DNA from: Patescibacteria group bacterium
GTDB taxonomy: Bacteria > Patescibacteriota > Minisyncoccia > JACQLN01
Length of the DNA: 61,166 nucleotides
Direction: 5' to 3'
NCBI GenBank assembly: GCA_038065095.1
Contig: JBBTRR010000001.1
Location: forward strand, 179,546 to 240,711
Shown: one piece after another, positions 9,995 to 60,627 of the stretch
How positions within the stretch are numbered: position 1 is the stretch's first letter
How the letters are laid out: every line of letters starts with the position of its first letter
Program-made: the position numbers and the translations under genes
Notes under the pieces: model-generated
Databases searched by the model: none
What the model saw: only the letters and a program-made list of their open reading frames with translations
What the model was told of the DNA's origin: nothing

Positions 9995-10699
9995 ATGAGT
10001 AAAAATATGAAATCTTTTATTTCAAAACGGTACTTTTTAGCTACCGTCGTTTCTTCTTTGTTGTCTATCTTTACAGTCGCGGTAGTGGCTTATGGAGCAA
10101 CTATGACCATAAGTAGCACTGGTCTAGGCAGTGGTACTTCTACTCCGGGAGCGGCTTTAGGTGTTCAGGGTGCTGCCATAGTTGATGATTTTGTGTGGAC
10201 TGGTTGGTTGGTTGGTACATCAACTGCTCATGCTTCTGGTTTTGGTACGACTACTCCTGGTGCGGATTTTGCTGTAGCTGGTAGCGCTTTATTTGACGGA
10301 AAGGTTACGGGTGATTACTTTAACGCTACTTCAACCACAGCTACATCTTCAATTAGATGGAGTTTGACTGCTGCTACAAGTACTTTTCAGGTTGATGGTG
10401 TAACAGGCAGGGTTGTTATAGGTGCGACCACAACTTTGCCACAAAGCGGTGGTATGCTTCAGACAGGAGGTAATTCAGAGATAGGTTTGACTATTACTGG
10501 TACGGGTAATGCCGCCAATGCTACAGGTACTATATATGTGGCTGGTGCCGGAGCTAGTGGTGGTCAGCTAATAATAAAGTCCAGTGATGGCAATAATTGT
10601 GTTTCTATAATGGCTCAAACTGGTGCTGTTGATCCAGAAACTGCGGCTACTTTAGCAGCAAACTTACTTACTTTTAGAGTGGTTGCTTGCCCTAAATAA
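9995..10699 (+). CDS. secreted/anchored Gly-Thr-Ala-rich hypothetical protein
   Basis: N-terminal hydrophobic signal/anchor followed by low-complexity G/T/A-rich sequence. No recognisable domain. Confidence 0.5.
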   Translation: MSKNMKSFISKRYFLATVVSSLLSIFTVAVVAYGATMTISSTGLGSGTSTPGAALGVQGAAIVDDFVWTGWLVGTSTAHASGFGTTTPGADFAVAGSALFDGKVTGDYFNATSTTATSSIRWSLTAATSTFQVDGVTGRVVIGATTTLPQSGGMLQTGGNSEIGLTITGTGNAANATGTIYVAGAGASGGQLIIKSSDGNNCVSIMAQTGAVDPETAATLAANLLTFRVVACPK

Positions 10700-10734
10700 T
10701 TACAAGCTCTTATTAATTTAATTTTTTATTACTT

Positions 10735-12195
10735 ATGAAACAACTTAGTTTGTTGGTTCTTATGAGCTTGTTTTTGCCCACGGTGGTATTGGGTGCTTAT
10801 AATGATGTTAGCTTGACCACAGGCACAACGCTTCAGGTAACTGTGGGTGGAACTGCGCTTGGTCTTACTGTTACCAATGGCACTGTAGAAAAAGTGGTTG
10901 TTGAAGGTAGTACTTTAGGTATAACTTTGGCAGGTGGTTCATCCATTGACCTTACTTCGGCTGACAAATATACTTTTTCCTATGCTAAAAGCAATGCCAT
11001 CGTTGGAGAAACATGTGGTAGCTCGTCTTCATCGTTGGGTATTTCTTTAGCGGCGGGCCAAACTACAGAAACTGTATCGGTAAGTCCTACTACAACGATT
11101 TGTCAGACTTCCGCTTCGGGTAGTGGATCGTCTTCGTCTAGTTCCGATAGTTCTTCATCCAGCAGTTCTAGCTCATCTTCTACGTCTAGTTCGTCATCAT
11201 CTGCCTCTACTCCAAGCACGACTACAACCACTTCAACCACAGCTTCAACGCCAGCAGCTACTACTGCTTCTGTTCCAGCTAAAGTTGCTGTAGCTCCTCC
11301 AGTTGTGACTGCGGTTTCTGCTCCATCGGCATCTGTTTCGTATGCACCGTCTGTTATGGTTAACTCCGAACTAAACCCTGGCGCTCGCAACGACGAAGTT
11401 ATGGATTTGCAAAAGCTTCTTGCCAAGGATCCAGAAATTTATCCAGAAGGAACAGTATCTGGTTTCTATGGTCCTAAGACCACAGCCGCTGTAAAGAAAT
11501 TCCAAGCCAAATATGGTTTGCCTACCGTAGGTAGAGTAGGCCCTGCTACAATGGCTAAATTGAATGAAGTGTTGGGGTCCCAGACTTCTAGTACAGTTAC
11601 TTCTACGACAGATCAAACAGCTGAACAAATACAAAACCAAATACAAACTATACAAGCACAAATTCAAGGAATAACTTCCGGAGGATCGGTTAGTGGAGTT
11701 TCGGTTAACTCCGAACTAAACCCCGGCGCTCGCAACGACGAAGTTATGGATTTGCAAAAGCTTCTTGCCAAGGATCCAGAAATTTATCCAGAAGGAACAG
11801 TATCTGGTTTCTATGGTCCTAAGACCACAGCCGCTGTAAAGAAATTCCAAGCCAAATATGGTTTGCCTACCGTAGGTAGAGTAGGCCCTGCTACAATAGC
11901 TAAATTGAATGAAGTGTTGGGGGTTTCTGTGGCTATGCCAACGGTTCCCGAAGCACCTTCTTATACAGCTCCAACAGTTAATTCGTCTACAGATGCCACC
12001 AAGCAAATAGAAGATCAGATCAAAGCTATTCAAGATCAAATTAAGGTTTTGACTGCTCCTGTTGCTGCCCCTGTCAAACCAGTAGCTTCTCCTTCGGTGG
12101 TTCCATCGACGACTTCATCATCGGATATAGCTAAGCAGGTTGAGGATCAGATAAAAGCCATACAAGCACAAATAGACGCATTGTTAAAACAGTAG
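10735..12195 (+). CDS. secreted protein with poly-Ser/Thr linker and two peptidoglycan-binding (PG_binding_1-like) domains
   Basis: It has a signal peptide and a long S/T tract. The module DEVMDLQKLLAKDPEIYPEGTVSGFYGPKTTAAVKKFQAKYGLPTVGRVGPAT occurs twice. QIxxQIKAIQ coiled segments are also present. Confidence 0.7.
   Translation: MKQLSLLVLMSLFLPTVVLGAYNDVSLTTGTTLQVTVGGTALGLTVTNGTVEKVVVEGSTLGITLAGGSSIDLTSADKYTFSYAKSNAIVGETCGSSSSSLGISLAAGQTTETVSVSPTTTICQTSASGSGSSSSSSDSSSSSSSSSSSTSSSSSSASTPSTTTTTSTTASTPAATTASVPAKVAVAPPVVTAVSAPSASVSYAPSVMVNSELNPGARNDEVMDLQKLLAKDPEIYPEGTVSGFYGPKTTAAVKKFQAKYGLPTVGRVGPATMAKLNEVLGSQTSSTVTSTTDQTAEQIQNQIQTIQAQIQGITSGGSVSGVSVNSELNPGARNDEVMDLQKLLAKDPEIYPEGTVSGFYGPKTTAAVKKFQAKYGLPTVGRVGPATIAKLNEVLGVSVAMPTVPEAPSYTAPTVNSSTDATKQIEDQIKAIQDQIKVLTAPVAAPVKPVASPSVVPSTTSSSDIAKQVEDQIKAIQAQIDALLKQ
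11358..11922 (+). repeat. intragenic direct duplication (11358-11577 and 11703-11922)
   Basis: Two 220-bp copies, 345 bp apart, differ at 2 positions in my manual comparison. Confidence 0.85.
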
Positions 12196-38361: not shown

Positions 38362-38931
38362 GTGAAAAAAGGAAATAGATTAAATCGCTTAGGTCCAAAT
38401 CAACAAAAAATACTTTTGTTACTTTCTGCTGGTATTGGTTTAAGCTTGGCGAGAACCCCAAGACAGTATTTTACAATTTTGAAAGAAGCTCCCAAAGAAT
38501 GGAAAAAAATAAACAAAAAATCTTTAGAAAGAGCTATTTATAATTTATATAAATCTAAACTTATTAGTGAACGTGAAAACTCCGACGGTTCATTAACTAT
38601 GGTTTTAACAGATAAGGGCAAAAATAAAGCCATTACTTTTAAGATAGATAGTATGGAGATCAAAAAACCCAAGCAATGGGATAATAAATGGCGAATAGTG
38701 TTATTTGATATACCCGAGAAACATAAAAGAGCTAGGGAAGTTTTAAGAGAAACTTTAAAAAGATTAGGATTTTATGAATACCAAAAGAGTGTCTTGGTTC
38801 ATCCTTATGATTGCCAAAATGAAGTAGATTTTGTGGTTGAATATTTTAATATTCGACCGCACGTTAGGATTATTACGGCTATAGAATTAGATAATGAATT
38901 ACACCTCCGCAAAATATTTGATTTGATCTAA
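38362..38931 (+). CDS. PaaX-like protein (N-terminal wHTH-like region + Cas2-fold C-terminal domain), paralog 1
   Basis: WRIVLFDIPEKHKRAREVLRETLKRLGFYEYQKSVLVHP matches the PaaX_C/Cas2-like pattern. It is a paralog of 55015..55602. Confidence 0.6.
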   Translation: MKKGNRLNRLGPNQQKILLLLSAGIGLSLARTPRQYFTILKEAPKEWKKINKKSLERAIYNLYKSKLISERENSDGSLTMVLTDKGKNKAITFKIDSMEIKKPKQWDNKWRIVLFDIPEKHKRAREVLRETLKRLGFYEYQKSVLVHPYDCQNEVDFVVEYFNIRPHVRIITAIELDNELHLRKIFDLI

Positions 38932-48306: not shown

Positions 48307-50199
48307 ATGTTGCTCAATTTGATTTACCTACTGTTGAGCCTAGCTTTTATGGGCTGTGATGGTTCCAAGGAATCGCCCGTGTCGTTCAATAGTCCTACGG
48401 GTGGGCGTGATAAGTTCACAAAAGAACTGCATGCCGACTGGGATCTACAGAAAATAGTTTCGCTGGATTCCGTTAGGAACTGGCCGGCCGGAAAGAAAAT
48501 GTTCGTGCGTACGGCTTTTGCTGGCGCCGAACTGGAGGATTTCGAAGTAAAGTTTGTAACTGTAGTAGAAGATGGTTTGCCAACTATGCCTCTTGTTATG
48601 TTGGAGGCATCGGATCCACGCTTGATAGCGCTGGGTGGTGTGGCCCAAGGCATGAGTGGCTCGCCTGTGTTTACCGAAGAGGGTACGGTGGGTGCACTTT
48701 CCTATGGTTTCGATTTGCAAGGTGCCCCGCCGTTTTATTTTATGGCAACACCAATACAAGGAATGATTGACGGAGTTTTTTCTATCGGCAATCCTTCCCT
48801 AAAGAGTGTGGCTGTAAAAATTAAAAAGCTGGTTCCATTGTCTATTCCCATTGCAGTAACTGGGACATCGGCGAAAGCTTTGAAATATTTTTCCGCAATT
48901 GCCCAAAAACATACGGGTAATGGGCAGAGTTTTCTTTTGGAGAGTGGCTCAGCTTCGTCTGGTGAATTTAACCAGAGCTTTGAAGCTGGAGGTCCTCTAG
49001 CTACGGGTTTGGTTGTCGGACCCGAAGTCAAAGCTGCTGCTCTTGGCACCATTACTTATATGAACGGTAACCAGATTTTTGGTTTTGGCCATCCGTTTCT
49101 TTGGCTGGGGCCACAAAGTTTACCGATCGTAGATGCTTACGTCATTGCCGAAATTTCAAATCTGTTTGCGGCGTTCAAATTTTTCTCGTTAGGCGAAAAC
49201 ATTCGTGGAGAACTAACTGCCGACCGCTTGCCCGGAGTTGGGGGAGTTTTGGGCCAGATCCCAAACATGTTGCCAGTTACTGTCACGGTTGATATTCCAA
49301 ATTTCGGGATAAAGACCTTTAAGCATAGTGTCGCTCGTGGTCTTCCTGCAGGTTTCGAAACCGAGCTAAGCGCCATGTCGGTGTTCATACCTGTGCTTAA
49401 TCGCAACGACGACGTAGCTAACAAGTATAGCTTTAGAGTTGATACCAAAATCACTACCGATTTTTCTGATATCGAGATAAAAAACAGTCGGCTTTATTCG
49501 GCTTACGATTCACCAGCTTCAGAAGTCCTTTTTGGTGCCATTGATGAATATTTTTCTTCTCACGGAAGGTTGTTGACCAATCCATACCAGAAACTGCAAA
49601 TAAAGGATGTTACTGTTTCAGTAAAGATGGTGGACAGCCTGCTTATCGGCATGATCACAAAGATACATTCCGACACATCCGTTTTCGCGGGCGATGTGTT
49701 GAAGGTTGGAGTGAACCTTCGTGTAAACAGGACAGAGGACAGGGAGGTTGAGTTTAATGTAGCCATCCCAGACACTTTTCCTGTTGGCATTTATTCAATA
49801 AATGTCGGTCCAAAGAGAGAGGTGAGGTGGTTTATGGAATTTAATGGTATGAGTGACCCTGTTTCCAACGCGCTTTTGCCCGATACCAGTATGTCTGATA
49901 TGAGCATGGATGAGTTTTTAAAAGATGTAAACGCCGAGGATGAAAAAACCATACTCGGTGTGGCTGTGTCTTTTGTTTCTTCTCCCGTGCCAGACAAGAG
50001 AGACTTGGATACAACCAAATTCGCTGGTTTAGATTCTCTTTCTGTGCGGCCTGATTCGGTTGGTTTGCCCCCAAATTTGCTGGGTATGCCCGACATGGGT
50101 ATCACGATTCCAGATAATATGGTTTTATACCAGTCAACAGGGTTGGTTCTTCAAGGAAGCAGAACGATGCAGTTTAGGGTAAAAAGTAAAACAGAGTAA
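48307..50199 (+). CDS. lipoprotein with a SpoIVB (S55)-like serine-peptidase motif
   Basis: Strong GGAGG RBS and the lipobox LAFMGC. GVAQGMSGSPVFTEEGTVGALSYGF resembles the SpoIVB active-site segment. G+C is visibly higher than in the flanks. Confidence 0.5.
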   Translation: MLLNLIYLLLSLAFMGCDGSKESPVSFNSPTGGRDKFTKELHADWDLQKIVSLDSVRNWPAGKKMFVRTAFAGAELEDFEVKFVTVVEDGLPTMPLVMLEASDPRLIALGGVAQGMSGSPVFTEEGTVGALSYGFDLQGAPPFYFMATPIQGMIDGVFSIGNPSLKSVAVKIKKLVPLSIPIAVTGTSAKALKYFSAIAQKHTGNGQSFLLESGSASSGEFNQSFEAGGPLATGLVVGPEVKAAALGTITYMNGNQIFGFGHPFLWLGPQSLPIVDAYVIAEISNLFAAFKFFSLGENIRGELTADRLPGVGGVLGQIPNMLPVTVTVDIPNFGIKTFKHSVARGLPAGFETELSAMSVFIPVLNRNDDVANKYSFRVDTKITTDFSDIEIKNSRLYSAYDSPASEVLFGAIDEYFSSHGRLLTNPYQKLQIKDVTVSVKMVDSLLIGMITKIHSDTSVFAGDVLKVGVNLRVNRTEDREVEFNVAIPDTFPVGIYSINVGPKREVRWFMEFNGMSDPVSNALLPDTSMSDMSMDEFLKDVNAEDEKTILGVAVSFVSSPVPDKRDLDTTKFAGLDSLSVRPDSVGLPPNLLGMPDMGITIPDNMVLYQSTGLVLQGSRTMQFRVKSKTE

Positions 50200-50205
50200 T
50201 CTTAC

Positions 50206-50237
50206 AGCGGTCCGATCTTGTGTCGGACCGCTTTTTA
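50206..50237 (+). terminator. rho-independent terminator
   Basis: AGCGGTCCGA / TCGGACCGCT stem followed by TTTTT. Confidence 0.85.
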
Positions 50238-50277
50238 TTTTGGATTAAATGAGGTAAGTGATAAAATATAATATAAG

Positions 50278-51594
50278 ATGTTGCAAAATCCGTTTGGTTT
50301 GATGTTCAAGGTTTTAGGAATAGTTTCGCACCATATTTGGCTATGGGGCTGGGTTTTCTTGCCTATTCTTTTAGCTCCGTTTTTATGGGATGCATGGCTT
50401 TATTATATACGCATCCGCACTTTAAAAAAGTTTAAGTGGCAGATGTTGGAATTTCGTTTACCGCCAGATGTGGAAAAAAGTCCGTTAGCCATGGAACAAG
50501 TTTTGGCTTTTTTACAGAGCACTCTTTTTAAAGGTGGTTGGTGGAAACGCTATGTAGAAGGGCGTGTGCAGGAATGGTTTAGTTTAGAAATAACTTCTTT
50601 TGATGGTGAACTACATTTTTATATTCGTACTTTGGCGCAGTTTAGAAATTTAGTAGAAGCGGCAATTTATGCTCAATATCCACAGGCAGAAATTTTTGAT
50701 GCCGAAGATTATACTGCCAATGTGCCTGCAGTTATTCCCAACGAAACCCACGATCTTTTTGGTTGTGAACTTAAACTAGCGCGCGAAGATGGTTACCCTA
50801 TACGAACCTATAAAGATTTCGAACTAAAAACTGAAAGTAGTAAGGAGGGTGGTTCTAATATTTCTTTGGTTGACCCTTTGGCAGGTATAGTTGAAACAAT
50901 GACGCGTTTAAAAAAAGGTGAACAAGCATGGATTCAAATAGGAATATTACCAACAGATGATGGTTGGAAAAATGTTGCTACAGAAGCAGTTTTAAAATTA
51001 GTGGGTCGGCCTAAAAAAGAAGTACCACAAGGTTCTTATATGTTAGCACTTCTTAAAAAAGAATTATCTGATCTTGCAACAGGTGTGGTTCAAGCTCCGT
51101 TTAAAACTCCCGAATTTGAACCCTTTGAATGGGGTTCACCTAAAAGCGATAAGCCTCATTCTTTAATGCAATTTCTTACTTCGGGCGAAAAAGAAATTAT
51201 AGAAGGTATTGAACGCAAAATTGCTAAAGTAGGATTTCAGACGGTGCTTAGAGTTGTATATATAGCCACTAAAGAATCTTTTAATATACCAACCTTTTTT
51301 CAGGTGGCTTCTGGTTTTAATCAATTTAGTACTCAAAACTTAAATGCTATTAAAAGGGATGGGGCTACCTTAACTGCAGGTAAATTTCCTTTTAAAAAAA
51401 TGAAAGAAGCGCAAAAAAAGAAATGGATGCTTTTTAAATATAGACTTCGTTTTAAGCCAAAAAGTATGTTTGTAATGAATATAGAAGAATTAGCAACGTT
51501 GTTTCATTTTCCGGGGCGTGTGGTTATGGCACCAAGTTTGCCTAGGGTTCAAGCTAAAAAAGGCGAACCACCAGCAGGGCTTCCCAGTTATTAG
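50278..51594 (+). CDS. membrane protein of unknown function (2 N-terminal TM helices + large soluble domain)
   Basis: 438 aa with no named domain recognised. It lies upstream of the VirD4/TraD-like ATPase. Confidence 0.5.
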   Translation: MLQNPFGLMFKVLGIVSHHIWLWGWVFLPILLAPFLWDAWLYYIRIRTLKKFKWQMLEFRLPPDVEKSPLAMEQVLAFLQSTLFKGGWWKRYVEGRVQEWFSLEITSFDGELHFYIRTLAQFRNLVEAAIYAQYPQAEIFDAEDYTANVPAVIPNETHDLFGCELKLAREDGYPIRTYKDFELKTESSKEGGSNISLVDPLAGIVETMTRLKKGEQAWIQIGILPTDDGWKNVATEAVLKLVGRPKKEVPQGSYMLALLKKELSDLATGVVQAPFKTPEFEPFEWGSPKSDKPHSLMQFLTSGEKEIIEGIERKIAKVGFQTVLRVVYIATKESFNIPTFFQVASGFNQFSTQNLNAIKRDGATLTAGKFPFKKMKEAQKKKWMLFKYRLRFKPKSMFVMNIEELATLFHFPGRVVMAPSLPRVQAKKGEPPAGLPSY

Positions 51595-51630
51595 CTTCCT
51601 TAGCTTTCAGCTTCGTTAGTAATTAGTCGC

Positions 51631-51993
51631 ATGATAAATTCTTATAAAGATTTAATTGTTTGGCAGAAATCACTAAAATTATCTTTGTTAATTTATGAAC
51701 TTACAGAAAAATTTCCAAAAGAAGAAGTTTATGGTTTAACATCGCAAATAAGAAGGTCGGCAGTATCTATCCCATCTAACATAGCTGAAGGCAGGTTCAG
51801 AGGTACTAAAAATGATTTTACTCAATTTTTAAGAATAGCTTACTCTTCGGGGGCAGAACTGGAAACACAGATAGAAATAGCTAGAAATTTATCAAAGACA
51901 AAAAATTTAGATTATTCAAAAATAGATAGTTTGATGGTTGAAGTTATGAAGATGTTAAATGTTATGATAAGAAATATAAATCCTAAAAGCTAA
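51631..51993 (+). CDS. four-helix-bundle protein (23S rRNA intervening-sequence protein family, the family that includes DGR Avd)
   Basis: YKDLIVWQKS...SQIRRSAVSIPSNIAEG...F..FL.IA.SS..ELETQ is the family signature. Confidence 0.8.
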   Translation: MINSYKDLIVWQKSLKLSLLIYELTEKFPKEEVYGLTSQIRRSAVSIPSNIAEGRFRGTKNDFTQFLRIAYSSGAELETQIEIARNLSKTKNLDYSKIDSLMVEVMKMLNVMIRNINPKS

Positions 51994-52016
51994 AGAAGCT
52001 AGTGAAGCTAAAAGCT

Positions 52017-53732
52017 ATGAATGACGAAATAACTTTGTTCGCAGAAACAAATTTCCGCAACGAAAAGCGAAGATTTGGCATTAAAAAAGACGATCGCCGC
52101 AGGCACACCTATATAATTGGTAAAACCGGTATGGGTAAAACGACCATGCTTGAAAATATGATAATTTCCGATATTATCCACGGCAAGGGTTTGGGTTTTA
52201 TAGATCCACACGGGGATTCCGCCGATAAAATTTTAGAGTTTGTTCCACCAGAACGAATAAACGATGTAATTTATTTTGATCCTTCCGATTTAGATATGCC
52301 TATAGCTTTTAATGCTATAGAAAATGTTGAAGCCGAGAAAAAACATTTGGTGGCTTCGGGTTTGATGGGTGTGTTTAAAAAAATCTGGCCCGATGTATGG
52401 TCGGCCAGAATGGAATATATTTTAAACAATACTATTTTAGCTTTGCTTGATTACCCCGGCGCTACCATATTGGGAATTATGCGAATGCTTTCTAATAAAG
52501 AATACAGAAAGCAAGTGGTGGATCAAATTAAAGACCCAATGGTTAAATCTTTTTGGGTAGATGAATTTGCTAAATATACAGATAGGTTTGCGGCCGAAGC
52601 CACGCCGGCTATTCAAAACAAGGTTGGACAGTTTTTGTCGGCGGCGGTTATTCGTAATATTGTGGGGCAGGTAAACAGTGCTATAGATATGCGTAAAGTA
52701 ATGGACGAAGGCAAGATTTTAATTATGAATCTTTCTAAGGGTAAAATTGGCGAAGATAATTCTAAGCTTTTGGGTGGTTTGTTGGTTACCAAACTTCAAT
52801 TGGCTGCAATGAGTCGTGTGGACATTCCCGAAGAAGAACGTCGCGATTTCTTTTTATATGTAGATGAATTTCAAAATTTTGCCACAGAATCTTTTGGTAA
52901 TATTCTTTCCGAAGCTCGCAAATATCGCTTGGCCCTTATTTTGGCTAATCAGTATATCGCTCAATTGGTACAGAGCGTGGGTGGTTCCAAAAGCACAGCA
53001 GTGCGAGACGCAATTTTTGGTAACGTTGGTACCTTAATTTCTTTTAGAGTAGGTGCTGAAGATGCCGAATATTTAGAAAAAGAATTTGCGCCAGAATTTG
53101 TGGCTACCGATATTGTTAATCTGGCTAAATATAATGTTTATTTAAAACTTATGATAGATGGTGCATCTTCACGGGCTTTTTCGGCTACAACTTTGGCGCC
53201 TTATCCTAAACCTGCCGTAAGTAATCGCGACGAGATTATTAAACATTCTAGAGAAACTTATGGCACGCCACGCGAAGACGTAGAAAATGAAATTGCCGAT
53301 TGGGCTGGCGTTAGAGATTTAATGCCATCCAGTATAAAAGCAGCAAAAGCAGAAAGTGACGCCGCTTTCCGTGATGGTTACGATACAGAAGCTGCTCCAG
53401 CGGTCTCTGCTTCTAAACCAAAAAGCGATAAGGATCTTTTTGAAGCTGTTTGTTGGGAAGGTGGCGAGAAAGTTTGGGTGCCGTTTAAGCCCGATGGTGT
53501 TCGCCCAATTTATTGCAAAAACCATTTGTATAAATTAAATGAAGTTAAACAGCAAGTTATTTCCGATCAATTTAAACCAGTAAGTTTGCAAGATGCTTTG
53601 CAAAGAGGTGGCATAATAAACCATATTGGCAACCAATCGCGTTCGCCTAAAAAGAAAAATAAATCTAAAGAACCCTCAGCCGATATAGAAGGTTTGCGTT
53701 CGTTACTTTCGGATATTAAACCTATTTCTTAA
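52017..53732 (+). CDS. VirD4/TraD-like (type IV coupling protein-type) P-loop ATPase with a C-terminal Cys-containing tail
   Basis: GKTGMGKTT Walker A, FLYVDEFQNF Walker B and a RKYRL..ILANQ motif. The tail is C....G..VWVPFKPDGVRPIYCKNH. The track start at 52002 (GTG) lies inside the repeat arm. Confidence 0.7.
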   Translation: MNDEITLFAETNFRNEKRRFGIKKDDRRRHTYIIGKTGMGKTTMLENMIISDIIHGKGLGFIDPHGDSADKILEFVPPERINDVIYFDPSDLDMPIAFNAIENVEAEKKHLVASGLMGVFKKIWPDVWSARMEYILNNTILALLDYPGATILGIMRMLSNKEYRKQVVDQIKDPMVKSFWVDEFAKYTDRFAAEATPAIQNKVGQFLSAAVIRNIVGQVNSAIDMRKVMDEGKILIMNLSKGKIGEDNSKLLGGLLVTKLQLAAMSRVDIPEEERRDFFLYVDEFQNFATESFGNILSEARKYRLALILANQYIAQLVQSVGGSKSTAVRDAIFGNVGTLISFRVGAEDAEYLEKEFAPEFVATDIVNLAKYNVYLKLMIDGASSRAFSATTLAPYPKPAVSNRDEIIKHSRETYGTPREDVENEIADWAGVRDLMPSSIKAAKAESDAAFRDGYDTEAAPAVSASKPKSDKDLFEAVCWEGGEKVWVPFKPDGVRPIYCKNHLYKLNEVKQQVISDQFKPVSLQDALQRGGIINHIGNQSRSPKKKNKSKEPSADIEGLRSLLSDIKPIS

Positions 53733-53836: not shown

Positions 53837-54916
53837 ATGTCAAATAGCAATAATAGGCGAGTTTATATAGGAATGTCGGGCGGCGTGGATTCAAGCGTCG
53901 CTGCTTTGTTATTAAAAAACGAAGGCTATAATGTAACTGGTATATTTATGAAAAACTGGAGTGATCCAGCTTGGCCTTGCCCATGGCAAGAAGATCGCGC
54001 CGACGCTATGAGGGTTTGTTTAAAACTTGGTATACCTTTTGAAACTTGGGATTTTACAAAAGAGTATAAAGAAAAAGTTGTAGATTATATGATCCGTGAA
54101 TATGCATCTGGCCGAACACCTAACCCAGATGTAATGTGCAACAAAGAAATTAAGTTTGGTTTGTTTTTTGATCGCGCTATAAAATCGGGTGCAGATTATA
54201 TAGCCACTGGCCACTATGTCCGCAAATCACCCGATAATAAATTATTAAAAGCAAAATATTTAGAAAAAGATCAAAGCTATTTTTTATGGACGCTAAAACA
54301 AAATCAAATAGAAAAATGCTTGTTTCCAATAGGCGAGATAGAATCTAAATCAAAAGTCCGCGAGATTGCGGAGAGCGCAAGCTTGCCTACGGCAGGTAAA
54401 AAAGACTCACAGGGTATTTGTTTTATGGGGCCGGTGGATATTAAAGAATTTATAAAACCTTTTGTTAAAAAAGAAATTGGCGATATTGTTACAACCTCTG
54501 GCCAAAAAGTTGGCACGCATGGTGGTTTAGATTTTTATACAATTGGCCAACGCAAAGGTGTTGGTATTGGTGGCACTGGCCCATATTATGTGGCAAAAAA
54601 AGATTATGAAACTAATACTTTAATAGTTTCGCCGGTTACAGATACGCAAGCTTTGGAATCTAAAGAATTAATTGCGACCGGTGTTTCTTTTGCTTGTGGT
54701 GAGCCTGCCGAATCCATTGGTGACGAGCCTCAAACGTCGATCAAAGTACAAGCCTCCATTCGTTATCGCCAAGAACCAGTCCCAGCGACCTTGACCCTAC
54801 TGGCTAATAACCAGTGGCTAGTGGCTTTTGACCATCCTGTTCGCGCTGTATCTTCTGGCCAATCGGTTGTGTTTTATAACGGAGATGAAATGTTGGGCGG
54901 TGGAGTAATTGAATAG
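53837..54916 (+). CDS. mnmA: tRNA-specific 2-thiouridylase
   Basis: GMSGGVDSSVAA PP-loop and KDQSYFL motifs. Confidence 0.93.
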   Translation: MSNSNNRRVYIGMSGGVDSSVAALLLKNEGYNVTGIFMKNWSDPAWPCPWQEDRADAMRVCLKLGIPFETWDFTKEYKEKVVDYMIREYASGRTPNPDVMCNKEIKFGLFFDRAIKSGADYIATGHYVRKSPDNKLLKAKYLEKDQSYFLWTLKQNQIEKCLFPIGEIESKSKVREIAESASLPTAGKKDSQGICFMGPVDIKEFIKPFVKKEIGDIVTTSGQKVGTHGGLDFYTIGQRKGVGIGGTGPYYVAKKDYETNTLIVSPVTDTQALESKELIATGVSFACGEPAESIGDEPQTSIKVQASIRYRQEPVPATLTLLANNQWLVAFDHPVRAVSSGQSVVFYNGDEMLGGGVIE

Positions 54917-55014: not shown

Positions 55015-55602
55015 ATGTCTAATTTGAGTAACGTATCTAACAAGAGAACATATTATAGATTAGGACAAGTTCAGCAAAAAACTTTAGTGTTATTAGCTGC
55101 TGGAATTGGTTTAGGTCTAGCCATGAATTCCAATCAATACTTTCGCGTGCTTAAGGGAGCTAAATCAGAATGGCAGAACATAAACAGGCGTTCTTTAGAA
55201 AAAGCTATTAAATCTCTCTACCAATCCAAACTTATACGCGAACATGCTAACTCCGATGGTTCTTTAACTATGGTTTTAACCGATAAAGGTAAGCAAAGGG
55301 CTATAACCTTTAACATAGATAATATGGAAATAAAGAAACCAAACATCTGGGACAAAAAATGGAGAATAATATTATTTGATATTCCCGAAAAGAAAAGGCA
55401 AGCCAGAGATGTTTTAAGAGAAACTATAAAGCGGTTGGGTTTTTATGAATATCAAAAAAGTGTTTTTATTCATCCTTATCCCTGCCAAGATGAAATAGAT
55501 TATATAGTTGAATATTACGAAATCAGACAATACGTGAGAATAGTTACAGCTACAGAATTAGATAATGAGATACACTTGAAGAAAATATTCGGGTTAGTAT
55601 AA
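55015..55602 (+). CDS. PaaX-like protein (Cas2-fold C-terminal domain), paralog 2
   Basis: It aligns end to end with 38362..38931 (DGSLTMVLTDKGK, WRIILFDIPEKKRQARDVLRETIKRLGFYEYQKSV). Confidence 0.6.
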   Translation: MSNLSNVSNKRTYYRLGQVQQKTLVLLAAGIGLGLAMNSNQYFRVLKGAKSEWQNINRRSLEKAIKSLYQSKLIREHANSDGSLTMVLTDKGKQRAITFNIDNMEIKKPNIWDKKWRIILFDIPEKKRQARDVLRETIKRLGFYEYQKSVFIHPYPCQDEIDYIVEYYEIRQYVRIVTATELDNEIHLKKIFGLV

Positions 55603-55626
55603 TTTGGTTTGGTTGCAAATATATTA

Positions 55627-55664
55627 AACTTCAGTGAGATAACGATCGTATTCTCACTGAAGTT
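55627..55664. repeat. CGATCG-centred palindrome P10 (2-nt internal mismatch)
   Basis: AACTTCAGTGAGA-TA-ACGATCGT-AT-TCTCACTGAAGTT. Confidence 0.85.
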
Positions 55665-55815
55665 GGATTCATTTATATTATGGATTATATTATGAGTGTT
55701 CTTTCTTTAGAGTCCAGCAATAAATAGTGGGGCTTACAGGGTTTAACCCCTGCCCAAAAGATGGCTCAAATACTAACTAAAACCTATATATAAGATATGA
55801 GACATTACAACAAAC

Positions 55816-55844
55816 TTGACGTAATTCTATATATGGTATATGAT
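55816..55844 (+). promoter_or_regulatory. sigma70-like promoter of the DGR target gene
   Basis: TTGACG, a 17-nt spacer, then TATGAT. AAGGAGG lies 6 nt upstream of ATG 55930. Confidence 0.5.
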
Positions 55845-55929
55845 TTTAGAACACAGAGAAAGCTAGTTCCCTATCACAATAATGCGACAATATCCGCAAG
55901 GATAGTCGCTTAAACAAGGAGGAATCGCT

Positions 55930-56508
55930 ATGCCAGCGAAATCCGCGTTTTCGGCAGTGGATTTGGCCCACAAAACCTGCTTAGCGGCAGAAGAACAAGG
56001 GTATACGTTAGAGTTGATGAACGCTCTGGCAGAACACCCCACGCTTTTCCGCGATATGCTTCAGGTTCAGCTCGGCTATGCCGAGGTGAAAATTCTGGAA
56101 TATCTTATCAACTGCGACGCCGACCCCTTCGTGCCCGAAGGCTTGCAGGTGGAAGAACATACCAAAGGTGGCCAGTTCAAGTGGAACTCTACCGAAGTGG
56201 AACCTTTTCTCTCCGAACTCCAGCGCGATGGCAAAATCAGTGGTGGTCACGACCTTCGCAAAGAGCTGGCAGGCAAGTCAGTTCTGAACGCGAATGTCCT
56301 AGACTACCTGCTGGTGCACAAGCACCTCATCCCCGAGGAATGGAAGGATAAGGCTGTATTTTTCTGGGGCACCATCTACCGCTACTCGGACGGCAACCTG
56401 TATGTGCGTTACCTCTGTTGGAGCGGCGGCAGATGGCATTGGAGCTGCCGCTGGTTGGGCCGCGGTTGGGACGACGACTATCCCGCGGCTCTGCGCGCAA
56501 GTATCTAG
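55930..56508 (+). CDS. DGR target (variable) protein with a hypervariable C-terminal ligand-binding-type segment
   Basis: The last 41 codons (YRYSDGNLYVRYLCWSGGRWHWSCRWLGRGWDDDYPAALRA) form the VR that matches the downstream TR. G+C is visibly high, and the gene has its own promoter, RBS and terminator. Confidence 0.8.
   Translation: MPAKSAFSAVDLAHKTCLAAEEQGYTLELMNALAEHPTLFRDMLQVQLGYAEVKILEYLINCDADPFVPEGLQVEEHTKGGQFKWNSTEVEPFLSELQRDGKISGGHDLRKELAGKSVLNANVLDYLLVHKHLIPEEWKDKAVFFWGTIYRYSDGNLYVRYLCWSGGRWHWSCRWLGRGWDDDYPAALRASI
56377..56500 (+). repeat. DGR variable repeat (VR) with a 3' GC-rich IMH-like end
   Basis: It aligns without gaps over 124 bp to 56895-57018. All 17 differences lie at positions where the other copy has A. 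Confidence 0.85.
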
Positions 56509-56894
56509 CTCTTTGACCCTTGGAATCTTTGGCTTTTCTTTAGCCCTTGATCCCTTGGGTCTTTTTATTTTGTTTTATTCCGCCCCGACTATAAGTCGCG
56601 GGCGGTTCTTTGTAAAAAAACTAAAATGAATTAAAATAGATTTGGATACTAGGCGAATCTGCCGGCGGTTACGGCTTCCGGCGGCCGAATTCCGAGGCAA
56701 GCTATGCCAGAGTGGGGGCGGTTACGGCTTCTCCCAGCGTGCTAACTTGATCTCCAAAAAACAAAGATACTTGGTGTAGAGTGCTGGTGGAATAGTCCCG
56801 CCAAGGCGGGGCGAGGTCCCGAATAAAATACAGCCTTGAGATTGGTTTATTTATAACCTTCTATGGGCAGTGGCACAGATGGCATTCTATACGC

Positions 56895-57018
56895 AACCGC
56901 AACTCGGACGGCAACCTGTATGTGCGTTACCTCTATTGGAACGACGACAGATGGAATTGGAGCTACAACTGGTTGGACAACGATTGGAACGACAACAATC
57001 CCGCGGCTCTGCGCGCAA
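56895..57018 (+). mobile_element. DGR template repeat (TR), non-coding
   Basis: This is the adenine-rich copy (AAC/GAC/AAT codon-like triplets) of the VR. It has no start codon or RBS and is followed by a hairpin terminator. Confidence 0.85.
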
Positions 57019-57030
57019 CTGTCTTTATTT

Positions 57031-57060
57031 CTCTCTCAACTATTGAGGGAGTTTTATTTT
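57031..57060 (+). terminator. hairpin terminator immediately after the TR
   Basis: CTCTCTCAA / TTGAGGGAG stem followed by TTTTATTTT. Confidence 0.7.
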
Positions 57061-57095
57061 GCTTTCCTCTATTTTTCCGCTAATATAAAAGCACT

Positions 57096-58886
57096 ATGGA
57101 TTCTCAAGAAATAAGGCAGAGGTTTTTAAAATTCTTCGAAGAACGGGGGCATAAGGTTGTGCCGTCTAGTTCGCTTGTGCCCACCGATCCTTCGGTTCTT
57201 TTAACAACTGCTGGAATGCAGCAGTTTAAACCTTACTTTGTTGGCCAAAAAGATCCGATCGTGGATTTTGGTTCTAAAAATACTGTGTCTGTTCAAAAAT
57301 CTTTCCGTACTTCCGATATAGACGAAGTCGGCGATGAAACTCACCTAACATTTTTTGAAATGTTAGGGAACTTTAGTTTTGGTGGTTATTTCAAAGAAGA
57401 CGCCATCAAATATGCGTATGAATTTATTACCAAAGAAATGGGTCTTACTATTGATTACGTTAGTGTTTTTGAAGGAGACTCGGAAGTTCCTGCCGATACG
57501 GAATCGGAACAAATTTGGAAATCTTTAGGTATTGCAAAAATAGAAAAGTTTGGCCGAAAAGATAATTTCTGGGGTCCAACTGGTGCCGAAGGCCCGTGTG
57601 GTCCAACCACAGAAGTTTACGTTAAACCTTCGACGGGTTCGACAGGCTCACCACAAGCAAGCTCAGGTCAGGTGGCCGTAGAAGTTTGGAATATAGTATT
57701 TAACGAATACTATATGAAGCCAGATAAAACTTTAGAACCACTCAAAGTCAAAGGTGTAGACACTGGTATGGGTTTGGATCGTTTAGCAGTTATGGTTCAA
57801 GGCAAAAAAAATGTTTTTGAAACAGATTTACTAGAACCAATTTTAAAAATTTTGCCCGAAAGTATTGATTCTCATCATAAGCGAATCATAGCTGATCATT
57901 TACGGGCATCAGTTTTTCTTTTAGCCGATGGCGTAATGCCTTCTAATAAAGATAGAGGTTATATTTTACGCCGTCTTTTAAGACGTATTTTTACATACGA
58001 ATATATTTATAAACTTTCACCTCAAACTGGCGAATCTTTAATTATAGAAGTTATAAAAAAATACGGTGATTTTTATCCCGAACTACAAAATCAAAAAAAT
58101 AATATTATAGATATGTATTTTGGTGAATGGCAAGGTTTTAAATCTGTTTTAGAGCGTGGCTTAAAGGTTTTAGAAAAAGAAAATAATATAGATGCCAAAA
58201 AAGCTTTTAATTTTTATGAAACATATGGTTTGCCATACGATATAATAAAAGAAATTGCCGGAGTTAAAGCAGAAAACTTAACATTGGAAGGTTTTGAAGA
58301 TCAATTTAAAAAACACCAAGAAGTTTCTCGGGCTGGGGCCGAGAAAAAGTTTGGCGGGCATGGCATAACAGAAGGCGATTTAACCGCAGTTAATGCCGAA
58401 GAGATGAAAATAAAAACCCGTTTGCACACGGCTACACACTTATTAAATGCCGCATTGCATAAGGTTTTGGGCGATGAAGTTTCTCAGCGCGGGTCGGACA
58501 TAACTACAGAAAGAACTCGTTTTGATTTTGTTTTTAACCGTAAATTAACCGACGAAGAAATTAAAAAAGTGGAAGATTTAGTAAATGGTGCTATCTCGGT
58601 AAATTATCCAGTTAAAATAGAAACCATGCCTTTGGAAGAAGCGAAAAAATCGGGCGCGTTATATTTTTATAAAGGCAATTTTCCAGAAATAGTTAAAGTT
58701 TATTCAATAGGTAATTCCTCGATGGATTCGACAAGCTCACCACAGGCAGGCTTGGAACCTCCTTTCAGTCGGGAAATATGCGGTGGCCCACATGTTGCGA
58801 GTACTAGAGAAATTGGAAAGTTTAAAATAACTAAAGAGGAAAGTTCAAGCGCTGGTATTCGCAGGATTAGAGCCACTGTGGAATAG
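57096..58886 (+). CDS. alaS: alanine--tRNA ligase (short form without the C-terminal C-Ala region)
   Basis: FLKFFEERGH, TTAGMQQFKP, WNIVFNEY and CGGPHV motifs. It carries two in-frame copies of a GC-rich ~45-nt element. Confidence 0.93.
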   Translation: MDSQEIRQRFLKFFEERGHKVVPSSSLVPTDPSVLLTTAGMQQFKPYFVGQKDPIVDFGSKNTVSVQKSFRTSDIDEVGDETHLTFFEMLGNFSFGGYFKEDAIKYAYEFITKEMGLTIDYVSVFEGDSEVPADTESEQIWKSLGIAKIEKFGRKDNFWGPTGAEGPCGPTTEVYVKPSTGSTGSPQASSGQVAVEVWNIVFNEYYMKPDKTLEPLKVKGVDTGMGLDRLAVMVQGKKNVFETDLLEPILKILPESIDSHHKRIIADHLRASVFLLADGVMPSNKDRGYILRRLLRRIFTYEYIYKLSPQTGESLIIEVIKKYGDFYPELQNQKNNIIDMYFGEWQGFKSVLERGLKVLEKENNIDAKKAFNFYETYGLPYDIIKEIAGVKAENLTLEGFEDQFKKHQEVSRAGAEKKFGGHGITEGDLTAVNAEEMKIKTRLHTATHLLNAALHKVLGDEVSQRGSDITTERTRFDFVFNRKLTDEEIKKVEDLVNGAISVNYPVKIETMPLEEAKKSGALYFYKGNFPEIVKVYSIGNSSMDSTSSPQAGLEPPFSREICGGPHVASTREIGKFKITKEESSSAGIRRIRATVE

Positions 58887-58920: not shown

Positions 58921-60627
58921 ATGTCAAAAGAAAATATATACATTGAACTCCACGAAGACATTCAATCGGTAGTTGAAAAGATACAGTCTTCCGAAGCCAA
59001 TAAAATAGATTTAGTAATACCCACTGGTGCTAGAATTTTACAAAATATAGTAGACGCTCATCTTATAAAAGATACTGTGGAAGAATACGGTAAAGATTTA
59101 ACTGTGATTACGAGCGATCTTATGGGGAAGATTTTTGCAGAACGTGCAGGCCTCGTTGTTTCTGGTTTTGATGGTGCTGAAGAATCTGGTTTTGTAGTTT
59201 CGCAAGCCTTAGCTTCAACCGGAAGAATAAGCGATATTATTCCAAGGAGAAGAGGTATACCTATTGGTTTATCTTCCGAAAAAAAACAACACGCAGTTTT
59301 AACTGCTAGAACAAAAGCTATGCCAAGATCTTCGCATATAGCAAAATCAAGCAATAAAAAAGCTGAAGATTTTTATTTAAATAAAAATAAAGGTGAAAAT
59401 GGAGCAAATTTTTTAAAATCTTACAGAGAAGAACGCGCTAAGGCTAGTGTTTTTAATGGTTTAAATAAAGTAGGCCGTAAAAAATTTTTAAGTCCAATAA
59501 AATTTGTTGGACTTATTGTTTTTTTGGCATTAGCCGTTACCTTTATTGTTTTTAGCAGAGTATTGCCCAAAGCCGATATTTTGGTTTATCCGGTACGTGA
59601 AGCCAAGAATGGTAGTGTTGATGTTTTTGTTTCTGGTAAAAATTCTAAAATTGATCTAGAAAAAGGTTTAATTCCTGGAGAGCTTTTAACGAGCGAAAAA
59701 ATGGAAAGTGCAGAATTTCCAGCAACTGGTACACAAAATACATCTGGTAAAGCTAAAGGTAAAATAACTATTTATAATTCTTATTCAACGCAAGTTCAAA
59801 AATTTGTGCCATCTAGGTTTCAATCCGAGAGCGGAAAAATATTTTGGACAATAGTTAGTGTAAATGTTCCGGGGTATACAACAAAAAGTGGAAAGGTTGT
59901 TCCTGGGGAAATTACTACAGATGTTGTGGCGGCTGAAGGGGGAGATTCTTATAATATTCCTGCTTCTAAATTTACTATGCCGGCTTTTAAGGGTACGGCT
60001 AAAGGCAGTAAAATTTCTGCTGTTTCTAAAGAAGCTATGACAGGTGGTGGCGCCAATGGTGCAAAAATTGTTTCAAACGATGATGCTACTAATGCATACG
60101 ATGGTTTAAAAGAAAAAATAAAACCTCAGTTTGATTTATTTAAACAAAATTTACCTCAAGGTTTTAAATTTTGGCCAGAAGCTTATAACGAAGAATTGGT
60201 TTCAAGTTCAGTTTCTCCAGATGTCGGCGGTGTAGCGGACAAGTTTACAGCTATAGTAAAGATGGTGGCTAGAACAATAGTATTTAAAAATGAAGATTTA
60301 GATTTATATGTAAACAAAAAGATTTCTTCTAAGGATATAGACGGAAAAAAGGTTCTTTTAACAAGTTCCAAAGATGTGTCTTTCTTAAAACAGCCTCTGG
60401 TTGATTATCAAAAAGGAACGATTTCGGCTACGTTAAATGTAAAATACGATGTAATGGATGAATTTAATATTGAAGCTTTTAAAAAGAGTATACTAAATAA
60501 GAAGAAGACAGATATAGATATAAACGATTACAAGGCAGATCGCATAGAAGTTAACCTATGGCCATTTTGGGTGCGCTCTATTCCCTCTAATCTAGACAGG
60601 GTGAATGTTACTATAATTGGGTTGTAA
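58921..60627 (+). CDS. hypothetical protein with one internal TM helix
   Basis: 568 aa with no recognised domain. Confidence 0.45.
   Translation: MSKENIYIELHEDIQSVVEKIQSSEANKIDLVIPTGARILQNIVDAHLIKDTVEEYGKDLTVITSDLMGKIFAERAGLVVSGFDGAEESGFVVSQALASTGRISDIIPRRRGIPIGLSSEKKQHAVLTARTKAMPRSSHIAKSSNKKAEDFYLNKNKGENGANFLKSYREERAKASVFNGLNKVGRKKFLSPIKFVGLIVFLALAVTFIVFSRVLPKADILVYPVREAKNGSVDVFVSGKNSKIDLEKGLIPGELLTSEKMESAEFPATGTQNTSGKAKGKITIYNSYSTQVQKFVPSRFQSESGKIFWTIVSVNVPGYTTKSGKVVPGEITTDVVAAEGGDSYNIPASKFTMPAFKGTAKGSKISAVSKEAMTGGGANGAKIVSNDDATNAYDGLKEKIKPQFDLFKQNLPQGFKFWPEAYNEELVSSSVSPDVGGVADKFTAIVKMVARTIVFKNEDLDLYVNKKISSKDIDGKKVLLTSSKDVSFLKQPLVDYQKGTISATLNVKYDVMDEFNIEAFKKSILNKKKTDIDINDYKADRIEVNLWPFWVRSIPSNLDRVNVTIIGL

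Follow-up and report, generated by a model that had tools for sequence, protein, structure and literature searches.

A diversity-generating retroelement target gene and its template-RNA gene without a nearby reverse transcriptase in a Patescibacteria genome

How can a gene carry the imprint of a diversity-generating retroelement (DGR) in a stretch of genome that encodes no reverse transcriptase (RT)? The question is raised by a 61,166-nucleotide (nt) stretch of DNA from a Patescibacteria group bacterium (GenBank assembly GCA_038065095.1, contig JBBTRR010000001.1, positions 179,546 to 240,711 of the forward strand), referred to here as the window, in which the last 41 codons of a gene, the variable repeat (VR), recur downstream as a template repeat (TR) shortly before alaS. 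Judged from its sequence, the locus is a DGR target and template module without its enzymes. We consider it slightly better than an even bet (a probability of roughly 0.55) that this module is served in trans by an RT and its partner protein Avd encoded elsewhere in the same genome.

The two repeats (Table 1) align without gaps over 124 nt at an offset of 518, with 17 mismatches. At every mismatch the TR has A and the VR has G (11), C (3), or T (3), and the computed alignment agrees in this with the hand count of a preliminary description of the window, made from its letters alone. Substitutions at non-adenine TR positions, which that description held to be incompatible with a DGR, number 0 of 89, and all 17 changes lie in the first or second position of a codon, as it had stated. 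Given 35 adenines among the 124 nt of the TR, the chance that all 17 mismatches would fall on adenines is 4.6e-10. The pair was also recovered independently by a repeat finder (56378-56506 and 56896-57024; 86% identity). The homology closes with the GC-rich block CCCGCGGCTCTGCGCGCAA already pointed out as shared, and divergence starts at the next base, G after the VR and C after the TR; the block may correspond to an initiation of mutagenic homing (IMH) element. TR adenines make 22 codons variable, allowing ~1e19 possible protein variants. An imperfect palindrome lies just 3′ of the VR, and an equivalent element is found in the aligned cassettes of relatives. The DNA fold of positions 56478 to 56612 has a z score of −5.0 relative to shuffled sequences, a stretch that includes the terminator hairpin at 56580-56605, so that the score is not specific to the palindrome.

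Assignment to a DGR draws on the adenine-only mismatches and on homology to cassettes with a bAvd gene and an RVT_1 RT. The target, previously taken for an orphan gene, has 785 homologues at an E value of ≤1e-3, nearly all of ~190 amino acids (aa), and those carrying a source name are labelled as Patescibacteria-type metagenome-assembled genomes (MAGs). One homologue (P0015, 62% identity) belongs to a canonical cassette, L003 (also fetched as L017), in the order target, ~390-nt spacer, TR, bAvd on the opposite strand, and RVT_1 gene. The window aligns with L003 through the 5′ untranslated region (UTR), the gene, patches of the spacer, the whole TR, and ~45 nt past the TR. Beyond the post-TR hairpin, L003 continues with avd and the RT, whereas the window continues with alaS (57096-58886; Pfam tRNA-synt_2c, E value of 3e-113), the start codon of which is 30 nt past the last base homologous to complete cassettes. 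The succession of TR, hairpin, and alaS given in the preliminary description is correct (hairpin and T-run at 57031-57051). In complete cassettes, the stop codon of the antisense avd directly follows the post-TR hairpin and U-run. The window thus shares with the family a homologous target, leader helices H1 to H5, the TR, and the CU-rich hairpin region after it, and lacks the avd and RT that directly follow.

Neither enzyme was found in the rest of the window or close to it. No stop-to-stop open reading frame (ORF) of ≥150 aa in the window contains a [YF]xDD motif, and searches of the six-frame window with the RT of the homologous complete cassette gave best E values of 4.1 (phmmer --max) and 2.2 (tblastn). 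Gene lists from contigs of 384 kb and 130 kb in which the window is contained extend the RT search to ~80 kb. They hold no RVT_1 gene, phmmer RT match, or avd in the 10 kb past each window end, where the genes are those of sugar metabolism, ribosomal proteins, rpoA, an IS200-type transposase, and mreB. The reported lack of an RT in the window is thus borne out and reaches beyond it. The reported Avd-family gene, by contrast, is no DGR Avd: ORF 51631-51993, the only match in the window to the Avd of the cassette family (E value of 0.01), is a generic four-helix-bundle or 23S rRNA intervening-sequence protein (IVP) (PF05635, E value of 1e-37; TIGR02436) and falls far under the Avd cut-offs (bAvd, 20.7 bits versus 40; DivGenRetAVD, 18.6 versus 80). 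The complete cassette L003 comes from the same sample at similar coverage, but it was rejected as part of the same genome (flank GC content of 0.455 versus 0.36; tetranucleotide correlation of 0.64).

The same architecture recurs among relatives. A survey covered 80 loci from species-representative genomes, the best of 413 relatives, and the 28 complete loci, uniform in spacing, defined the Patescibacteria cassette family (target, template RNA, antisense avd, and RT). Three loci have TR and Avd on contigs that end before any visible RT; one (L039) has TR and Avd with no RT within 6 kb; four (L036, L056, L077, and L087) have a TR with neither Avd nor RT within 6 kb; two have Avd or RT fragments without a TR; and 42 have the target only, 27 of them with ≥5 kb of downstream sequence. 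The RT-less target and template module is therefore present in four other genomes, and all five modules, that of the window included, lose homology directly behind the post-TR hairpin. The genes downstream of these four loci, and of L039, are housekeeping genes. The genomes behind the four are JAHIUP01 (L036), CAYIOP01 (L056), CAYGXX01 (L077), and JAZDKW01 (L087). Judged by nearest relatives, the RT-less state probably arose in at least four lineages. When VR and TR were compared by local alignment (the L056 target has a C-terminal extension), all mismatches were at adenines in L056 (13/13) and L077 (8/8). Precise excision of avd and the RT might be caused by repeats; a search of RT genes for such repeats at their 3′ ends found none.

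Could the missing genes have been dropped by the assembly, through a mis-join between VR and TR? Repeats and hypervariable regions do break assemblies, three contigs of close strains (L009, L015, and L016) end within the locus, and many family members lie on contigs of ~1 kb. The identical junction of TR, hairpin, and alaS, however, appears in assemblies made independently from at least six samples or records (ERZ1292627, ERZ1292643, ERZ1292617, ERZ1300416, ERZ2470813, and GCA_964367435.1), at a coverage of up to 33× in the junction assemblies, and the architecture is that of the four other genomes. An assembly artefact is hardly credible.

Several surveyed loci depart from the standard arrangement in other ways. 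Two (L059 5779-6949 and L026 5552-5770) have the target with Avd and/or RT fragments and no detectable TR, and may represent other decay routes of the same cassette. Cassettes L021, L089, and L061 have two adjacent target paralogues, and the single TR of L021 aligns with both of its VRs, which depart from it at adenines only (16/16 and 19/19). The MAG with cassette L052 is labelled Gammaproteobacteria, although its cassette is of the Patescibacteria type, and a c-di-GMP-II riboswitch above the Rfam gathering score lies ~200 nt 3′ of its DGR RT gene (L052 8655-8774).

Across the spacer between VR and TR, in an alignment of 35 cassettes, the stop codon is followed by the palindrome, a GC hairpin with T-run, a TG-N-TAWAAT element, a leader of ~250 nt, and the TR; after the TR come a conserved GCAACUCUCUUCAYUUCUC, a hairpin, and a U-run. 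The hairpin at the position of the putative target terminator is present in each cassette, with a different sequence each time. RNAalifold on the 35 cassettes gave helices H1 to H5 and the terminator. Over 57 tested leader pairs, 96% of cells can pair, compared with 40 to 49% when partners were slid; both-side changes occur in 42 of the 57, and cells changed on both sides number 312, against 35 to 73 in the slid controls. None of 500 shuffles reached the observed values, and this strong covariation marks the leader as a genuine structured RNA. The preliminary description had called the spacer structured and had seen GGCGGTTACGGCTTC twice in it, and both points hold; what can be added is that the two copies are the loops of H1 and H2, conserved hairpins of a template-RNA leader. 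Of the 57 pairs, 53 are preserved in the window, 55 to 57 in the remaining RT-less modules, and 50 to 57 in complete cassettes, except for L049 (39 pairs), in which the H2 region is absent or unaligned. The template-RNA gene of the window is intact. Because a promoter-like element and terminators bracket the unit and avd is antisense, the template RNA looks like a separate transcript even in complete cassettes. No further copy of the VR, the TR, or the leader was found in the window.

At Rfam gathering thresholds, the window and 11 cassette loci contained no family covering the leader, and only tRNA and one riboswitch reached a gathering score. A weak match to anti-hemB/suhB in L065 was dismissed as merely a terminator. 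Helix H2, at 56706-56755, does match the first 40 nt of the RT-7 consensus (RF03028), in the order GCCAGAGU, stem, GGUNANGGC, stem, AGNGUGCU, but it scores 21.8 bits where the gathering score is 116.8, with the remaining 145 model positions unmatched. RT-7 is one of the motifs RT-1 to RT-19 found near RT genes and suspected of roles in DGRs by Weinberg et al. (PMC5737381), and it could itself act as template-RNA leader in a related DGR lineage.

Comparison of strains, which was made on assembled contigs rather than reads, indicates both past activity and gain or loss of the module. The window protein is encoded on 12 to 13 contigs, which come from several samples of Hainich groundwater (wells H51 and H52) and from GCA_964367435.1, and all contigs spanning the locus have identical VR, TR, and TR-alaS junction; in its VR, the dominant population thus looks clonal. 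Other strains differ. L015 (well H41) has 22 differences from the window over 1,235 nt, 17 of them in the VR and all 17 at TR-adenine sites, which leaves 5 differences in the 1,111 nt outside the VR. L016 carries the L015 allele on a background diverged by ~3%, and the one VR change in L009 is likewise at a TR-adenine site (1/1). As VR alleles differ only at such sites, mutagenic homing has acted within the lineage. A further strain, L099 (well H41), has an alanyl-tRNA synthetase in the same 90% cluster as that of the window, with alaS identical over 1.87 kb, but in L099 the PaaX-like gene that precedes the module is followed after ~75 nt by alaS, and the segment at ~55591-57068 is missing. 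The module is a presence/absence polymorphism in a recombining population. The cassette has a GC content of 0.52, compared with ~0.36 in its flanks, and the target a third-position GC content (GC3) of 0.63, compared with 0.28 to 0.31 in neighbouring host genes. GC excess alone was set aside as proof of recent transfer: most measured cassettes, including the syntenic L077 and L087, are also GC-richer than at least one flank. Composition is therefore weak evidence of transfer, and the empty site of L099 is better.

Divergence between the co-occurring strains is patchy, runs of 10 to 45 differences alternating with up to 1.9 kb of identity (divergent patches at window positions 57137-57233, 59107-59793, and beyond 60328 relative to L099 and at 54058-54115 relative to L009). 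Such patches, one of which abuts the module, are as expected from homologous recombination tracts. Within alaS, a 100-N gap occurs at one and the same position in two independent assemblies (L010 4316-4415 and L014 1574-1673), replacing 337 nt (window 57245-57581) that other assemblies resolve.

Presence and absence of the segment among very close strains means that it is young here, and this, with a VR allele identical in all spanning assemblies and no RT or Avd within ~80 kb, would suit a recently orphaned remnant: avd and the RT would have been deleted, or the left half only imported, so that no homing occurs in the strain today, while target, VR, TR, and RNA structure are still perfect for want of time to decay. 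Intermediate decay states exist (L039, which has lost the RT and kept Avd, and L059 and L026, with RT fragments), and degenerate DGR loci are common elsewhere (PMC7290462, PMC10907252). We take the remnant to be a serious possibility, of about one chance in three, though less likely than service in trans. Strains differ in the VR only at TR-adenine sites, the four other RT-less modules are no less clean than complete cassettes, and all five truncations end precisely after the terminator hairpin and leave the RNA gene whole.

A pair of orthologous RT-less modules also speaks against a remnant. L077 and L087 are syntenic (target, template RNA, and ruvA-yceG; ~70% nt identity) and are also homologous over ~110 nt of the interval that separates the post-TR hairpin from ruvA. 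Their TRs have 12 differences, 6 of them with A in neither TR, and at those 6 each VR follows its own TR (6/6 in L077 and 6/6 in L087). The target scaffolds are 50% identical in aa sequence, with a proportion of synonymous differences (pS) of 0.74 (synonymous divergence is saturated) and a ratio of nonsynonymous to synonymous rates (dN/dS) of 0.16; for the VR, pS is 0.22 and dN/dS is 1.2. Among 57 leader pairs, 36 are the same, 11 have a one-sided change that still pairs, 8 are compensatory, and 2 are broken. If, as is parsimonious, the RT-less state preceded the split of L077 and L087, then template-to-VR transfer and selection on the RNA would have continued without an RT in cis. The joint evolution of VR and TR, a scaffold under purifying selection, and the compensating changes in the RNA argue that RT-less modules may be maintained and served in trans. 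A complete cassette, L045 5833-9040, occupies the same genomic site, the RT stop codon 4 nt before the ruvA start.

The favoured reading, service in trans, can be set out as a mechanism. The locus would be a non-autonomous DGR module of two genes: a target gene whose last 41 codons form the VR and a separate template-RNA gene, with a promoter-like site of its own, the structured leader, the TR, and a CU-rich tail containing the terminator hairpin. An Avd-RT pair from elsewhere in the genome, whose existence we infer, would bind leader and tail; the RT would copy the TR into cDNA, misincorporating opposite adenines; and the cDNA would replace the VR, putatively guided by the GC-rich end of the repeat and by the palindrome 3′ of the VR. 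In complete relatives avd is antisense and the RT is separately transcribed, and the enzyme would therefore always meet the template RNA as a diffusible partner. Work cited in PMC5758913 is reported there to have established remote targets and to have found experimentally that avd, TR, and brt function in trans.

A number of observations weigh against service in trans. No RT has been seen for the window genome, of which ~80 kb of a 384- to 391-kb contig was inspected, and the one VR allele extends over both wells, H51 and H52, and several samples. The L015 allele, occurring also on the L016 background, need not be recent, and the contigs of L009, L015, and L016 are short and stop before the TR-alaS junction, so that these strains could still carry avd and the RT. 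A single loss in L077 and L087 rests on parsimony; the complete cassette before ruvA in L045 means that two independent losses are possible, and the GC3 of the L077 and L087 targets is unadjusted to the host, complicating a purely vertical history. Finally, L036 and L087 have ~5 to 6 non-adenine VR/TR mismatches. The two explanations put forward in the preliminary description, an RT acting in trans and a recent orphan, are precisely those left standing.

Beyond this one locus, RT-less units of target and template RNA could make up a class of their own in Patescibacteria: non-autonomous DGR modules maintained by selection, each with its own template and structured recognition RNA, gained or lost as a unit of ~1.2 to 1.5 kb and relying on an Avd-RT pair elsewhere. 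We advance this tentatively, at a little under even odds. If the class is real, a small genome could combine several independent templates with a single Avd-RT pair that serves them all. Because surveys for DGRs start from the RT gene, they miss RT-less units or file them as debris; should such units be functional clients of a distant RT, tiny symbiotic genomes contain more diversified genes than has been estimated. It would then become possible to test which features of the RNA let an RT choose its template, the covarying 5′ leader being in no RNA database, and one enzyme with many templates would give engineered multi-target mutagenesis a precedent in nature. Should the locus be no more than a fresh remnant, it still dates a loss event in a living population and offers a clean natural control for DGR activity.

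What the module diversifies can be described in part. No family was assigned to the target in Pfam, NCBIfam, PHROGs, or a PDB sequence profile search. The family alignment has a conserved frame, FFWGTIYRxSDGxLxVRYLxWxGGRWxWxxxWLxxxWxxxxPAALRAS, in which the variable columns are the TR-adenine codons. An AlphaFold (AF2) model of high confidence (pLDDT of 91.6, pTM of 0.74) predicts a mixed alpha/beta core, preceded by three helices at the N terminus and followed at the C terminus by four long strands (residues 143 to 189) that bear the VR. Foldseek searches of the model against PDB and BFVD gave no match at an E value of ≤1e-3; the best weak matches were the C-terminal domain of Bd2740, a Bdellovibrio fibre-tip domain (probability of 0.75), and C-type lectins (probability of 0.2 to 0.3, TM score of 0.3 to 0.48). 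The C-type-lectin-like fold expected beforehand therefore remains a weak resemblance, in a structure that is itself confidently predicted. By analogy with other DGR targets, the protein may bind a ligand.

Viral sequences bear on one further explanation, in which an enzyme of external origin, supplied for instance by a phage, a plasmid, or a co-resident cell, acts on the module only transiently. The module is strain variable and compositionally foreign, and DGRs are frequent on phages according to the literature, but only 4 of 2.9 million viral contigs have a target homologue, none of the 4 has a TR, Avd, or RT, and no data point to a donor. An external enzyme is very improbable. One short contig labelled as viral in IMG/VR (L106 280-2006) has three tandem target paralogues, without TR, Avd, or RT.

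Table 1. Positions of the module, its parts, and its RNA helices in the window
Feature	Position	Strand	Basis or remark
Strain-variable segment holding the complete module	55591..57068	+	Comparison with L099 empty site; GC; GC3
Promoter-like site of target gene, TTGACG-17-TATGAT	55816..55844	+	Putative; consensus scan only; not conserved in L003
Conserved 5′ UTR and ribosome-binding site; start of homology to complete cassettes	55895..55929	+	DNA alignment with L003
DGR target gene, 192 aa	55930..56508	+	ORF list; family searches; AF2 model
VR, last 41 codons of target gene	56377..56500	+	Ungapped alignment; population alleles
GC-rich IMH-like block common to VR and TR	56482..56500	+	Alignment; putative function by analogy with phage BPP-1
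Imperfect palindrome, CTTNG-type repeats, just 3′ of VR; candidate target-recognition hairpin/cruciform	56515..56561	+	Putative role, after PMC3240598
GC hairpin (56580-56605) and T-run, likely target-gene terminator	56580..56612	+	Cassette alignment; DNA fold
Promoter-like site of template RNA, TTGTAA-16-TAAAAT	56610..56637	+	Putative; aligned with family-conserved TG-N-TAWAAT element
Structured leader of template RNA, ~250 nt	56644..56894	+	RNAalifold on 35 cassettes
Leader helix H1	56652-56686	+	Loop GGTTACGGCTT
Leader helix H2	56699-56748	+	Loop GGTTACGGCTT
Leader helix H3, 12-bp long-range	56774-56785 with 56881-56892	+	Closes on bases just 5′ of TR
Leader helix H4	56789-56819	+	RNAalifold
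Leader helix H5	56833-56868	+	RNAalifold
TR, 124 nt, 35 adenines	56895..57018	+	Repeat finder and alignment
Conserved CU-rich stretch, hairpin (57031-57051), and U-run; end of template RNA	57019..57066	+	Last sequence homologous to complete cassettes

The surroundings of the module contain other features of note. It lies directly 3′ of a PaaX-like gene (55015-55602; PF20803, E value of 8e-25), which has a paralogue at 38362-38931 (~73% DNA identity), both with a Cas2-like central domain. The block at 48307-53732 encodes an S55-like peptidase, a DUF8128 protein, the four-helix-bundle (23S rRNA IVP) protein, and a TrwB/TraG-type coupling ATPase that bears a treble-clef zinc finger; the GC content of the block is elevated to 0.44 at 48 to 50 kb, and the block may belong to an apparatus for conjugation-like transfer or DNA uptake, or to an integrated element. 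At 9995-12195, in the other patch of raised GC content in the window (0.42 to 0.46), two Ser/Thr/Ala-rich, apparently secreted proteins are encoded, the second with duplicated PG_binding_1 (peptidoglycan-binding) repeats. About 6 kb past the right end of the window, an IS200/IS605-type Y1 transposase gene (L100 16876-17667) adjoins two unannotated ORFs.

Among known systems, the locus resembles the DGR of phage BPP-1 (mtd-VR, avd, TR, and brt) in having its VR at the 3′ end of the target ORF, adenine-only TR-to-VR differences in AAY-type codons, a GC-rich block that closes the repeat, and a putative hairpin-forming element just 3′ of the VR (PMC3240598). Unlike BPP-1, the window locus has no RT or Avd, and in its family avd is antisense and downstream of the TR. 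The family also has a large structured RNA 5′ of the TR and only ~50 nt 3′ of it, whereas the BPP-1 spacer is 3′ of the TR (Rfam RT-10 motif; PMC5737381). The target differs too, having no significant structural match in PDB; Mtd is not among the 50 best Foldseek matches listed.

The survey of Paul et al. 2017 is also relevant to DGRs of the candidate phyla radiation (CPR). The DGRs of CPR bacteria described by Wu et al. in 2018 (the "CPR set", with unknown VR classes UVR1-6; PMC5758913) are similar in their groundwater Patescibacteria hosts, in small targets without a known domain, and in the order target, TR, accessory gene, and RT, the last two of which the window copy lacks.

Lack of an RT is less unprecedented than the preliminary description implied. 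Thiohalocapsa PB-PSB1 has degenerate DGR loci, for which service in trans by an RT and/or TR elsewhere has been proposed (PMC10907252), and crAss-like phages have incomplete DGR cassettes (PMC7290462); a DGR locus that lacks its RT thus belongs to a kind already known. These loci likewise have a VR and/or TR with the RT missing or broken. In contrast to them, the Patescibacteria unit is precisely bounded and recurrent in several genomes, its family includes a pair (L077 and L087) with signs of long-term selection, and no complete partner locus has been seen in the part of the window genome inspected.

Short interspersed nuclear elements (SINEs) are non-autonomous retroelements that use an enzyme encoded elsewhere, by long interspersed nuclear elements (LINEs). 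The analogy lies in an RNA-coding unit that has no RT of its own and depends on one acting in trans and recognizing its RNA. It is an analogy without evidence of homology, and the window unit differs in that it would rewrite one adjacent gene segment rather than copy itself to new sites. Against this background, what seem to be new in the Patescibacteria family are the bounded unit of target and template RNA, its recurrence across genomes, the covarying 5′ leader, and the comparative signal of maintenance.

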